A stretch of 64,000 bases of DNA. Source: an uncultured Candidatus Saccharimonadales bacterium. Lineage in GTDB: Bacteria > Patescibacteriota > Saccharimonadia > UBA4664. Position 1 is the stretch's first letter. Every line of letters begins with the position of its first letter. Shown here piece by piece: positions 17,309-31,693 of this stretch. The position numbers and the translations under genes were made by a program. The notes below the pieces were generated by a model that saw nothing but the letters and a program-made list of their open reading frames with translations, had not been told where the DNA came from and did not search any database. Location of the stretch: the NCBI GenBank assembly GCA_964467655.1, contig CAYXSN010000002.1, positions 27,327-91,326 on the forward strand, given 5' to 3'.

Positions 17309-17384
17309 GGGGCTGTAGCTCAGTTGGTAGAGCGCTTGCATGGCATGCAAGAGGTCCAGGGTTCGAATCCCTGTAGCTCCACCA
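17309..17384 (+). tRNA. tRNA-Ala (anticodon GGC), CCA encoded; integration target
   Basis: GGGGCTGTAGCTCAGTTGGTAGAGCGCTTGCATGGCATGCAAGAGGTCCAGGGTTCGAATCCCTGTAGCTCCACCA. Anticodon loop ATGGCAT. G3:U70. Confidence 0.9.
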
Positions 17385-18921
17385 TCGAATAAACGTCGCC
17401 TAAAGCGGCGTTTTTCGTGTTTATACAATGGCTTGATAGCCGCAAAATATCGGATATTTCAGCGGTGCAAACTTTTTGATCTGGGTCGTATAAAATCTCG
17501 GTCTTAAATAGCAGGGACTTTGCACGTAGCCTCACTTCAGGCTCAAGATCCCACCACTGGCTTTTAAGGTCATTAATGGTGTGTATGGCGAACCGGATGA
17601 ACTCGGCCAGGTCGTCCTCGGCAAGTGCTGCCTTAATGTCGCTATCGACCTTAAACATCTCGCTCTTAATGCGTACGATCTCGGCTTCAAAGTCATCTGC
17701 TAAGTGCGGCCGCTCGCCGATTGCTCTCATCAGGTTTGACTTTGTTTGCTCGAGATTTTGGCGCACGTTTTTCAGCTCATCGACTCGTTTTATTGTCTCG
17801 CTGCGTCGCTGTTTCCATATTCGTGTGAGCGAGGTGGTCAACGCTTCCTGATATGCCTTATCGAGCCGCACGTGGCTCAACAACGCGTTCAGCGCGCCAT
17901 GTAGGTCGTCGCGGTTTGGGGACTTTCCGCATTTCCGACATCTATATTTGGGATACTCTGCCTTGAAGCGGTTGCGTGTAATTCCGCCGGTGAATTCGCC
18001 GTTGTTGCAGGCGCATTTGACCACTCGCTTCATTGGGAATTGCGGGTTGATCACCTCATGCTTTTCGCTGCGCGGCTTGCCGAAGAAGGCTTCGAGGATG
18101 CGCTCGTGTTCTTCTAAGGTGATCATTGCTCGGTGCTGGCCGCGTTCGCTGCGGGCCTTTGCCTGTTTGCTGACGACGACCACTCCTGCATAAAATGGGC
18201 TGGTTGCGTGATGCTTGAATTTATCCCATTTCATCGGCCCGCGTGTCTGACCCATATCCGCCAGTCGCTTGGTGCGAGTCGGCGCTTTGACGAAGTCGCT
18301 GCGATTAAGCTGATCGAGTGCCTCGCGTGGTGTGGCGAGACCATTTGCGATTGACTTGAGCGCCTGCTGCCACGGCTCGGCTTCTATGGGGTGCCAGGCT
18401 TTTACGCCTGCCACAGGGCCTTTAGTGTATCCAGGTGGCGAAGTAAATGTATGTCTGCCATCCGATACCGCTTTTTCGTGGCCTCGGATACTTTTGCCAG
18501 TGCGCTCCTCGTTGCTGCCCTCGCCTTTGAAGGCTTGCAGGGCGAGCATCAATGATGCAATCGCGCCGGGCTTGTTTAGTTCAGGATTCTGGGCGAAGTG
18601 GATTCTGACATTAGCCTCATTCTCGAAGCGAACCTGCCAATAAAATAGCTCCCTGATTGACCGCATGAGTCGGTCGGGTTCGTCTACGATAATCCATCGG
18701 ACACCCTTGTGCTTTTTACAGAACTCTAGCGCTTCAAGCAGGTCAGGACGATTCACATTCTTGCCCGATTTGCTGCTTACATCGCCACTCCACCATTTAA
18801 CGACCTCAACGCCAAGCTCATCCGCCGCTTGGCGGCAGGCTGCTTCTTGGCGTGACAGGCTGCCAGACTTGAGTTGCTCGGCAGTCGATACTCTAGCTAG
18901 AGCGATTGCTTGCGCCTTCAT
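17320..18921 (-). CDS. large serine recombinase (phage integrase)
   Basis: N-terminal resolvase domain with ARVSTAEQ catalytic-Ser motif; recombinase domain; zinc ribbon (CACN...CRKCG); C-terminal coiled coil. The last about 20 codons read antisense through the tRNA-Ala gene. Confidence 0.85.
   Translation of the reverse strand: MKAQAIALARVSTAEQLKSGSLSRQEAACRQAADELGVEVVKWWSGDVSSKSGKNVNRPDLLEALEFCKKHKGVRWIIVDEPDRLMRSIRELFYWQVRFENEANVRIHFAQNPELNKPGAIASLMLALQAFKGEGSNEERTGKSIRGHEKAVSDGRHTFTSPPGYTKGPVAGVKAWHPIEAEPWQQALKSIANGLATPREALDQLNRSDFVKAPTRTKRLADMGQTRGPMKWDKFKHHATSPFYAGVVVVSKQAKARSERGQHRAMITLEEHERILEAFFGKPRSEKHEVINPQFPMKRVVKCACNNGEFTGGITRNRFKAEYPKYRCRKCGKSPNRDDLHGALNALLSHVRLDKAYQEALTTSLTRIWKQRRSETIKRVDELKNVRQNLEQTKSNLMRAIGERPHLADDFEAEIVRIKSEMFKVDSDIKAALAEDDLAEFIRFAIHTINDLKSQWWDLEPEVRLRAKSLLFKTEILYDPDQKVCTAEISDILRLSSHCINTKNAALGDVYSMVELQGFEPWTSCMPCKRSTN
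17369..17385. repeat. attL core, 17-bp direct repeat CCCTGTAGCTCCACCAT (3-prime end of tRNA-Ala)
   Basis: Identical 17-mer recurs at 31677..31693. Confidence 0.6.
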
Positions 18922-19250
18922 TCAATTCCTTCCAGATTGCAAACACAAACATTACCCATCACGCCGCTCCAAGTCGAGCTTTTTGCGCCTTTGGGCCTCA
19001 AACATGTCGAATAGCATGGCTGCTAGTTTATCGAGCGCCTGCTGTTCAGCCTCACTTACTTGTTTGGCGGCTTTACCGCTCAATTAGGATCTCCCAGCTA
19101 AGTGCTGTTCAATCCCTTCCAGAATGTTCCTATTATCTCAAGCTGTGCTTACTCGATCCAGCCTTGTATTTGTTTGCTGGCCTGGTGAAAAGATGTCGTT
19201 ATGCTACCACCTTGCCATCCTCCCCAACCTAAGCTAAAACACAACACGCT

Positions 19251-19673
19251 ATGCCTGAGGTTTACGAGAACACCAACAACATCGCCGCTTCGATTTGCTT
19301 TCGTCTACGGCCTATTTTGGGCCACGGCAGCGTGGTAATTGTGTGCGACGCGCCAGATAGGTTGATACCCGAAGTAAGGCGTTTGTGGGGTCGCCTGACG
19401 CGCCTGGAGCAGGATCAGCGCCGCCGTACCGACGACGTGTTGATGATCACAAAGCTCACCGATGAAATCGTAGCAATGCAGCATCTTTGGTTCGGGACTG
19501 ACGAGCTGGATTGCCCAGTGCGCTTCATGACCGTCGAGCAGTTTCGGGAGCAGCCATACCTAGCCCGCACTTTGTTTGTTGCGTGTGATCTGGATAGGGA
19601 AGCATTGGATGATCTAGTTGGGTACATGCCGCCGAAGTCACTCGTCGTAGCCTTTGGTGCGCGACGTGGCTAG
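19251..19673 (+). CDS. hypothetical protein (element-encoded)
   Basis: 140 aa, no motif recognised. Confidence 0.35.
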   Translation: MPEVYENTNNIAASICFRLRPILGHGSVVIVCDAPDRLIPEVRRLWGRLTRLEQDQRRRTDDVLMITKLTDEIVAMQHLWFGTDELDCPVRFMTVEQFREQPYLARTLFVACDLDREALDDLVGYMPPKSLVVAFGARRG

Positions 19674-20101
19674 TGAAGCCGCCCCATCAAAAGATCGGAT
19701 AAAGCTGGCTCGGAAACTAGCTGCCGTATATGTGGCGGCTGTAGCATTACAATCGGCTCTTGAAGAAGTTGAAGGCCAAATGCCGGATGTTTCAGTCGAA
19801 CTTAAGGGCAGTACATTTAGCGTTCGGGCTGGGAATATTCGTTATGGCAGCAAGTTTGATGGGATATAACACATGGAAATAAGACTCACCAAGAAAGAAC
19901 TCGACCTCCTCCGGCTCGGTCTATCTTGCATCTCAATCGTCTCCACGAACTGGACGGCGGCCGAGAAACTCTCCGCGAAATTGCTCAAAGCCAAACAATC
20001 AGGTGTCACTAATAAGCGACGCGCATCCGAATCTGAGGCGAAACTTTGATTTGGCCCTATATGGGGCTAGAATGTCATTATTTACTGGAAGGATACTCAT
20101 A

Positions 20102-31173: not shown

Positions 31174-31253
31174 AGAAAGGCCTTGAGCGATGTGCGCTCA
31201 ATTCCTTCCAGATATATCTATTATACCGCTTTCGCTATCTGTTGGACAGGAGC

Positions 31254-31592
31254 TTAGTCAACCCGTTCGGCAGGGATGAGGTGGATCATGACCTCGCTCA
31301 CACGGTTTGTGAGAGTCGTATCGGCGTATATGGCGCTGCGGAATATCTCAAGGCCATCGTCAAGATCTAAACCTTGAGCTTCGGTGATAGTCATCCCCGT
31401 GACATTTGCAATCATTTCTGGCATCACCTCTAGGGCCGCCACGTATACATTGTTTAGGAAGCCCTCAAAGACCGTGCGGGTTGTCGGGTCGGAAAAGTCT
31501 GCGCGTTTTAGTTCACGATGAGGGTCGATCTTGGCCCCGGCCGAATGCAAGATCGTGGCTATCTCGGCTGCGTTAAATGGTCGTACTGTCAT
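31254..31592 (-). CDS. possible tail assembly chaperone
   Basis: 112 aa acidic protein immediately upstream of the TMP on the same strand. Confidence 0.3.
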   Translation of the reverse strand: MTVRPFNAAEIATILHSAGAKIDPHRELKRADFSDPTTRTVFEGFLNNVYVAALEVMPEMIANVTGMTITEAQGLDLDDGLEIFRSAIYADTTLTNRVSEVMIHLIPAERVD

Positions 31593-31676
31593 GCCATCCC
31601 CCTTGTTCTCTCAAACATACCCTGAAGTATGCCTCGCCATCTAGTGATTTCATCCATTAGAGTGTTCCAACTAATA

Positions 31677-31693
31677 CCCTGTAGCTCCACCAT
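31677..31693. repeat. attR core, CCCTGTAGCTCCACCAT
   Basis: Exact 17-bp copy of the tRNA-Ala(GGC) 3-prime end. Confidence 0.6.

Follow-up and report, generated by a model that had tools for sequence, protein, structure and literature searches.

A tRNA-integrated element of phage ancestry in a Saccharimonadia bacterium, with a large serine integrase, an Ltp-family protein and an incomplete set of tail genes

Introduction

What kind of mobile element carries a tape measure protein and tail fibre genes without a recognisable capsid, portal or terminase, and enters a tRNA gene by means of a serine recombinase? The question is posed by a locus of an uncultured Candidatus Saccharimonadales bacterium, which lies within a 64,000-nucleotide stretch of contig CAYXSN010000002.1 (the window, to which all positions refer). 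A first-pass annotation, made from the letters alone, had taken positions 17309 to 31693 for an integrated element with a tail-only structural module, and had offered a decayed prophage, a satellite borrowing a helper capsid and a tailocin-like locus as possible explanations. Our analyses identify a 14.3-kb integrative element of phage ancestry that owes its mobility to a large serine recombinase and falls short of a complete prophage. As to its nature, we tentatively favour, at something short of even confidence, a defective (cryptic) and mosaic phage-derived island, kept for Ltp-type exclusion and carried by a tRNA-targeting serine-integrase module. We prefer this reading because the set of tail genes is incomplete, because the block around the tape measure gene converges on the fibre genes, and because the integrase family carries islands of a defence type.

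Results

Insertion into the 3' end of a tRNA-Ala(GGC) gene

The element is bounded by two exact copies of the 17-mer CCCTGTAGCTCCACCAT, at 17369-17385 and 31677-31693, for which about 0.01 matches are expected by chance and which none of 100 shuffles equalled. ARAGORN and Rfam agree on the tRNA-Ala(GGC) gene at 17309-17384, and the left copy of the repeat coincides with its 3' end, both as first annotated. The segment between the att sites measures 14,308 bp and holds one integrase gene, a size that falls within the satellite-like range of roughly 5-20 kb; its GC content is 53.5%, and its coding fraction, summed from gene calls, is about 88%. The element entered the 3' end of tRNA-Ala(GGC) in a Saccharimonadia bacterium, and it did so without loss of the tRNA, which is rebuilt by the element's own 17-bp copy and receives a new terminator from the element (Table 1). 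In the empty sites of relatives a hairpin is present at the same post-tRNA position, and the apparent original terminator hairpin of the tRNA is found at about 31727-31766, 3' of attR, which is the displaced original tRNA 3' end. On this basis, attP can be reconstructed as ...GTTCCAACTAATA-CCCTGTAGCTCCACCAT-CGAATAAACGTCGCC and attB as ...GGTTCGAATC-CCTGTAGCTCCACCAT-TTAGATAATTCCTATAC.

Are these boundaries real? An assembly artefact or a chimera could have created false ones, an explanation that we regard as refuted and give practically no credence. attL is spanned by two independent assemblies from the European Nucleotide Archive (ENA) and attR by more than eight Logan and ENA contigs, in each case at 100% identity and in assemblies from other runs. 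Contigs of at least ten further sequencing runs contain the element with 100% identity and in an unchanged integrated context, and wherever one of the exact proteins (R, F, the tape measure or the integrase) occurs on a contig, that context is seen as well. A single variant contig (L135) departs from this uniformity, with 3 differences only and at 2x coverage; all other copies are 100% identical. A complete 1.32-Mb Saccharimonadia genome (CP064960.1; L009) provides the uninterrupted counterpart: it is syntenic, shares the photolyase gene, an MMPL gene, an 85-aa open reading frame (ORF), the tRNA and, further on, a second MMPL gene (63-79% protein identity), and has an empty site at which the tRNA is followed directly by the terminator hairpin. 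Because both junctions recur in independent assemblies and this syntenic genome lacks the insert, the boundaries are taken as real, which settles the first-pass concern about an assembly artefact. The attP junction was not found in viral contigs, and a degenerate attB/attP/attL/attR pattern had no match in metagenomes of the Joint Genome Institute.

The tRNA also identifies the host. Its exact 47-nt 3' half occurs in 10 of 185,579 species-representative genomes, all of them metagenome-assembled genomes (MAGs) of Saccharimonadia/Saccharibacteria, and because it is confined to these ten, the initial guess of a Saccharibacteria-like host from the candidate phyla radiation (CPR) was right. The element itself is absent from all ten. 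The accompanying suggestion that an integrated phage-like element would be a rarity in such a host is outdated, since 120 prophages have already been predicted in Saccharibacteria genomes (PMC10746230).

Several further features of the region touch on the insertion site. A 15/17 match to the att core (CCCAGGAGCTCCACCAT, 8014-8030), inside an ORF of the Exo_endo_phos family (7911..8840), is probably due to chance. About 100 bp to the right of attR, at 31790-31818, the tRNA T-loop, 3' end and following 'CGAA' recur in degenerate form (72% identity to 17361-17389), a stretch that resembles the scar left by an earlier attL-type junction. In the syntenic CP064960.1, unrelated genes take the place of the 3.1 kb from attR to the right MMPL gene, which here encode a 321-aa HExxH protein (31910..32875) and an aldehyde dehydrogenase (33406..34797). 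Two MMPL-family transporter genes (14854-16977 and 34836-36974) bracket the tRNA both here and in CP064960.1, and the tRNA-Ala(GGC) gene appears to be a recurrent insertion hotspot.

A serine-integrase family associated with tRNA genes

The gene that abuts the tRNA encodes, in agreement with the first-pass annotation, a large serine recombinase, with PF00239 aligned to residues 5-156 and phrog_95 to residues 3-484. The catalytic serine resides in an RVS motif whose R10, V11 and S12 are invariant in 21 homologues (alignment A3), and Cys305, Cys328 and Cys331 are invariant across the same alignment; PF07508 and PF13408 have no match in this integrase and were seen only in a distant family member (P0146). 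The gene runs through attL into the tRNA in antisense, residues 513-533 being encoded by the att core and the tRNA. In the reconstructed attP form, the ORF crosses attP to give a protein of 546 aa, and its TGA overlaps the ATG of ORF R (ATGA). This overlap in the circle would therefore make the integrase gene, R, the tape measure gene and P one reconstructed leftward unit, facing a rightward unit that extends from B to O. We infer that the integrase is still able to excise the element.

How widespread is this integrase? Homologues are few (22 at E < 1e-20, with 33-46% identity, one of them annotated as Saccharibacteria), and a genome scan with the protein gave no match. When metagenome contigs were scanned, 80 loci were retrieved, many of them within contigs 0.4-1 Mb in length. 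The 3' end of the integrase gene is overlapped by a tRNA gene on the opposite strand in 46 of the 80 (among L065-L133); 40 of these tRNAs are Gly(GCC), the others Gly(CCC), Val or Glu. Read from alignment A3 and the repeats, the conserved C-terminal motif 'MV(R/E)xxG' is most likely the antisense translation of the tRNA acceptor and T-stems. A second repeat lies within reach in three relatives and measures 23-31 nt, compared with 17 bp in this element; these repeats restore the tRNA. Most relatives have no repeat of at least 12 nt within 10 kb. The family is coherent and apparently centred on Saccharibacteria.

The genes found beside the related integrases encode AAA_13 and HEPN proteins, ADP-ribosylglycohydrolase, OLD-TOPRIM ATPases, restriction-modification methylases and UvrD, and to judge by these families the cargo of such islands is mostly defence-like, not phage genes or prophages. 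Viral collections point in the same direction, with the integrase family on 2 of the 2.9 million viral contigs in IMG/VR, both of the defence-island type. Homologues of the other genes of the element are lacking from the loci of the family, with the exception of ORF G.

That exception belongs to a second island from the same metagenome (L037; ERZ27309394 k141_276049, 2400-11560), whose integrase is 46% identical to the one described here and whose G homologue (6320..6772) is 43% identical, which makes G the sole cargo gene common to another island of the same family. The L037 island has no adjoining tRNA and no phage-family matches. In L037-L039 the integrase gene stands upstream of similar host genes (Mg-chelatase/ComM-like, DUF4446 and bactofilin), a location that may represent a second conserved insertion site.

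An incomplete and rearranged set of tail genes

Four predicted products link the element to siphovirus tails. The tape measure protein is of full length, with 704 aa compared with 660-680 aa in its nearest homologues, which come from siphophage contigs and share 45-50% identity over the N-terminal half. ORF K carries the motif GLDQVDNTADADKPIS and matches tail-fibre and minor-tail families among the PHROGs, and ORF L matches a glycine-rich family; the tape measure, the motif-bearing fibre gene and the glycine-rich fibre protein had all been recognised at first pass. Of the two small tail proteins named alongside them, only P is supported as tail-related, and R has no significant match. P belongs to a very large family of proteins of about 155 aa (1694 representative homologues), PF12571 being found in 9 of the 75 homologues used to build its AlphaFold (AF2) model. 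This model (pLDDT 96.6) has as its top Foldseek match the baseplate hub domain of Haloferax tailed virus 1 (HFTV1; 9h4p_BD, E 1e-6, TM 0.60), and the fold also matches N-terminal domains of tail and tail-collar fibre proteins.

The arrangement of these genes is unlike that of a canonical siphophage tail module. In all four related siphophage contigs (L003, L004, L006 and L134; 14-36 kb), the order is terminator, tube, two frameshifted chaperones, tape measure, Dit and Tal. In the element, R occupies the position of the tail-assembly chaperones, but hhalign against the chaperone-position ORFs of the related phages returned an E value of 0.014 and a probability of 3%, and R is a single 112-aa ORF without an overlapping extension ORF, unlike a G/GT frameshift chaperone pair. 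The gene downstream of the tape measure is P, not Dit, and the block of R, tape measure and P converges from the opposite strand on the fibre genes K and L. When every ORF of the four phage contigs was compared with the window by tblastn, only the tape measure and P were recovered; these two share 29-50% identity with proteins of the complete-looking siphophages, in which the P homologue stands not beside the tape measure but elsewhere in the genome. Used singly to scan viral contigs, the proteins F and G and the tape measure gave no match, and K matched only via its common motif. With a tape measure alignment, 55 viral loci were retrieved, none of which shares another gene of the element.

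What is missing is as informative. No terminase, portal, capsid or protease was recognised by Pfam, PHROGs, tblastn against phage genomes or ORF size, as the first pass had reported, and no family for head, packaging, tube, sheath, terminator, Dit/Tal or lysis functions was found in Pfam or PHROGs, even at E values up to 10. The integrase and the tape measure aside, no ORF exceeds 305 aa and the largest unassigned one has 304 aa, so that neither a large terminase nor a portal protein could be accommodated. The earlier description as a tail-only structural module has to be abandoned, given that the tube, terminator, chaperones, Dit and Tal that flank the tape measure in related phages are absent here. 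Because tube, chaperone frameshift pair, Dit/Tal, head, packaging and lysis genes are lacking, the element is predicted to be unable to make particles on its own.

These observations bear on two explanations. The first is a tailocin-like particle locus that can still excise, as would suit the presence of tail genes without head genes. Since the tail genes are incomplete and rearranged and do not amount to a tail module, we set it aside as very unlikely and close to refuted: there is no tube, sheath, terminator, Dit/Tal hub or lysis cassette, the tail genes stand on opposite strands with one block converging on the fibres, and the related phages show the complete tail module that this lineage needs. 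The second, which we consider equally improbable, is a small complete prophage in which divergence has put the head and packaging genes beyond recognition. Twelve ORFs without detectable homologues leave some scope for it, as does the fact that most structural genes of the related phage contigs are also without a Pfam match. However, the unassigned ORFs, at 304 aa or less, are too short for a large terminase or portal; ORF F combines weak matches to replication initiators with a low-complexity linker that, read by eye, fits a capsid protein poorly, and J and M are coiled-coil proteins.

A membrane-anchored Ltp-family protein

The first-pass annotation of a two-repeat Ltp lipoprotein was half correct. 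The two PF07553 repeats are present behind an N-terminal hydrophobic membrane anchor; the protein contains no cysteine at all and thus no lipobox, and is therefore membrane-anchored, not a lipoprotein. The target of the Ltp prototype is the tape measure protein (Bebeacua et al. 2013, cited in PMC3952083). The Ltp-family protein of the element would block DNA injection by incoming siphophages.

An exclusion protein in the company of tail genes also invites the idea of a dedicated defence island, in which Ltp would block injection and the captured tape measure and fibre genes would serve as decoys or dominant-negative subunits that poison tail assembly. The Ltp-family protein itself and the defence-type cargo beside related integrases are in keeping with this idea, and interference with tail assembly is a known defence strategy (PMC11364771). 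PADLOC, however, found nothing in the element. We know of no precedent for full-length tape measure proteins as decoys, and this explanation is speculative and, in our estimate, improbable.

Control regions and the remaining genes of the rightward unit

The spacer between E and F is AT-rich, as had been noted (42% GC against 53.5% for the element), and contains the element's best sigma-70-like promoter match (21535-21563) together with a perfect 16-nt inverted repeat (21406-21421 / 21570-21585), features that make it a candidate origin or early promoter. For the replication and helix-turn-helix (HTH) genes announced at first pass the outcome is mixed: G and I are HTH-like, and the replication function comes down to F, whose weak PHROG matches (E 1e-3), the sole ones obtained for it, hint at a possible replication initiator. 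A single-sequence AF2 model of F was unusable (pLDDT 35), and searches of PDB sequences with M, F and K gave no match. No significant match was obtained for B, D, E, G, H, I, J, M, N, O and R in Pfam and PHROGs to E 10, PADLOC, PDB sequences or GenBank phages.

An impression by eye that G might be a small terminase was dropped, being without support in Pfam or PHROGs to E 10; nor was there family support for G in PDB sequences, in a search of 5.8 billion proteins or in phage genomes. A regulator or a directionality factor is just as possible for G, given that a second island with an integrase of this family encodes a homologue.

A second candidate regulatory feature is common to the leaders of the integrase and tape measure genes. 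The 16-mer ATCTGGAAGGAATTGA (minus strand), which abuts the start codon of the integrase gene at 18922-18937, has an exact copy in the tape measure leader at 31198-31213 and an 88% copy at 19109-19124, in the control region between the integrase gene and B. The tape measure leader can form a very stable, perfect 16-bp stem (31206-31191 / 31166-31151; RNA fold dG -38.8 kcal/mol, z -4.25), whose 5' arm takes in all but the first 7 bases of the 16-mer, and a smaller terminator-like hairpin (31201-31183) that is mutually exclusive with this stem. The 16-mer and the stem may constitute a shared operator or a riboregulatory leader.

Elsewhere in the window, a leucyl-tRNA synthetase (46482-49748, 1088 aa) contains an inserted Nudix-like segment (residues 488-616) that matches models of RNA pyrophosphohydrolase and dihydroneopterin triphosphate diphosphatase.

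Table 1. Coordinates of the tRNA target, att sites, genes and control regions of the element within the window
Feature	Position	Strand	Matches or basis
tRNA-Ala(GGC), integration target, intact after insertion	17309..17384	+	ARAGORN; Rfam RF00005, 68.5 bits
Large serine recombinase (integrase), 533 aa	17320..18921	-	PF00239 E 2e-18; phrog_95 integrase E 3e-40
attL core, 17-bp direct repeat (tRNA 3' end plus one base)	17369..17385		exact match; repeat family D14
Terminator-like hairpin supplied by the element, directly after the tRNA, within the 3' coding tail of the integrase gene	17391..17413	+	
Divergent control region, integrase gene to B	18922..19250		
ORF B, 140 aa	19251..19673	+	no Pfam, PHROG or PADLOC match
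Small ORFs after B	19654..19869, 19873..20049	+	
Ltp-family exclusion protein, 176 aa	20102..20632	+	PF07553 x2 E 6e-42; phrog_4980 E 6e-55
ORFs D (91 aa, N-terminal transmembrane helix) and E (94-123 aa)	20644..21331	+	
AT-rich E-F spacer, 42% GC	21332..21645		
ORF F, 304 aa	21646..22560	+	phrog_270 and phrog_428, E 1e-3
ORF G, 159 aa, helix-turn-helix-like N-terminus	22640..23119	+	
ORFs H (90 aa), I (123 aa, HTH-like), J (213 aa, coiled-coil) and j2 (65 aa)	23264..24945	+	
ORF K, fibre-like or minor-tail-like, 266-290 aa by gene callers	24983..25900	+	19 PHROG families; best phrog_35419 tail fibre E 6e-13
ORF L, glycine-rich tail protein, 227 aa	25900..26583	+	PF21722 (Gly_rich_2) E 3e-15; phrog_863 E 6e-17
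ORFs M (215 aa, coiled-coil N-half), N (118 aa) and O (125-156 aa)	26832..28329	+	sub-threshold coiled-coil matches only
ORF P, 156 aa, tail-fibre-anchor or baseplate-hub-domain fold	28534..29004	-	
Tape measure protein, 704 aa	29017..31131	-	PF20155 E 7e-25; 8 tape-measure PHROGs
Tape measure leader, with TATAAT-like box and AGGAGG ribosome-binding site	31132..31253	-	
ORF R, 112 aa	31254..31592	-	no family match
attR core, second copy of the 17-bp repeat	31677..31693		exact match

Discussion

In conjunction with the comparisons above, we propose the following for the cryptic, mosaic island that we tentatively favour. In the integrated state, the membrane-anchored Ltp-family protein would be the likely selected function. 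The tape measure, P, K and L would be what is left of a siphovirus tail, or a mosaic of one, in incomplete and rearranged form. Excision by the integrase would yield a circle in which the integrase gene, R, the tape measure and P are read as one leftward unit.

Several observations weigh against such a cryptic island. Nothing looks decayed, and when set beside their families the tape measure protein and the products of K, L and P are of full length; the dense coding, operon-like gene overlaps and exact repeats are of a piece with this. The occurrence of one 16-mer in the leaders of both the integrase and the tape measure looks like designed co-regulation, and to derive the present layout from a canonical prophage would require large deletions together with a clean-ended inversion or translocation. 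The twelve ORFs without detectable homologues may have functions that went unrecognised, and the copies at hand are so nearly identical that selection (dN/dS) is not measurable, which is a limit of the data.

Could the element instead be a helper-dependent satellite? Such an element would be induced by a Saccharibacteria siphophage, excised, replicated from the module formed by F and the AT-rich spacer, and packaged in helper capsids. With the tape measure, tail-tip protein and fibres that it contributes, it would determine how long the tails of the carrier particles are and which hosts they reach. A length of 14.3 kb suits this proposal, as do an integrase and att sites that are intact, genes that are compact and undamaged, and the failure to find head, packaging or lysis genes. 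The candidate replication module with its promoter and inverted repeat, the coupling of the integrase ORF to R across attP and the 16-mer common to the integrase and tape measure leaders can be read in the same way, and the relatives of the tape measure and P in complete-looking siphophages point to possible helpers. The hallmark genes of satellites, on the other hand, are missing, as no primase/replicase, AlpA or Stl-type regulator, small terminase or factor for capsid-size or packaging interference was found in Pfam or PHROGs, and G, small-terminase-like by eye, has no family support. The scans revealed no helper, no attP contig and no second member of the element family, and no published description of a satellite family that brings a tape measure turned up in a literature search. 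We judge a satellite to be a less likely explanation than the cryptic island, though the foremost of its competitors.

A more specific version, which we rate as unlikely, would be a new kind of satellite in Saccharibacteria, combining its own tape measure, tail-tip protein and fibres with the capsids and tubes of a helper, and carried by a clade of serine integrases specialised for tRNA 3' ends. If true, such a tail-supplying satellite would be the mirror image of the capsid-forming phage-inducible chromosomal islands (PICIs), providing tail-tip parts and not heads. The tail genes look intact and co-regulated, yet the set is incomplete, and it is this combination that makes a possible tail-supplying satellite worth interest.

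What is the broader relevance of the locus? Incomplete phage-like islands are common, so that the cargo alone is of modest interest. Targeting of tRNA genes is a hallmark of tyrosine integrases, and large serine integrases are unidirectional. The tRNA-targeting serine-integrase family is the more novel point, and with a defined natural attB in tRNA genes it could give tools for the newly tractable CPR bacteria. Mageeney et al. (2020; PMC7192596) reported tRNA use in 4.9% of serine-integrase elements, described it as previously unreported and considered it in need of proof.

The element combines traits of several known systems. With the siphophages represented by L003, L004, L006 and L134 it shares a tape measure (45-50% identity over the N-terminal half, at similar length) and a P-family protein; those phages, however, possess the full tail order and have no further gene in common with it. 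The PICIs, capsid-forming PICIs (cfPICIs), P4-like satellites and PICI-like elements (PLEs) resemble it as integrated, compact elements of 10-15 kb with an integrase, a possible replication module and no complete virion set, whereas the element differs in that none of their hallmark genes was found and no helper is known. The cfPICIs in particular encode heads and borrow tails, in contrast to the tape measure and fibres carried here.

Cryptic prophages of the Gram-positive type with an Ltp-type gene near the integrase, for example the lysogeny module of Streptococcus thermophilus phage TP-J34, offer a close parallel to the overall composition, in that the integrase lies beside the att site, a two-repeat Ltp protein is encoded near the integrase, and siphovirus tail genes, including the tape measure, are present. 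The element departs from this type in its integrase, which is a serine recombinase acting at a tRNA gene, in its Ltp homologue, which is membrane-anchored without a lipobox cysteine, in its extent, of which only 14.3 kb are left with tail genes that are incomplete and convergent, and in its host, a member of the Saccharimonadia (CPR). The integrase, finally, resembles those of phiC31, Bxb1, A118, SPbeta and CcrAB in having an N-terminal resolvase domain with a serine nucleophile, a considerable length and what may be a Cys-rich, zinc-ribbon-like region, and its gene stands at one end of the element, as in elements of the phiC31 type. Unlike these, it uses the 3' end of a tRNA gene as its target, with attL and attR identical over 17 bp, and its ORF continues in antisense into the tRNA.

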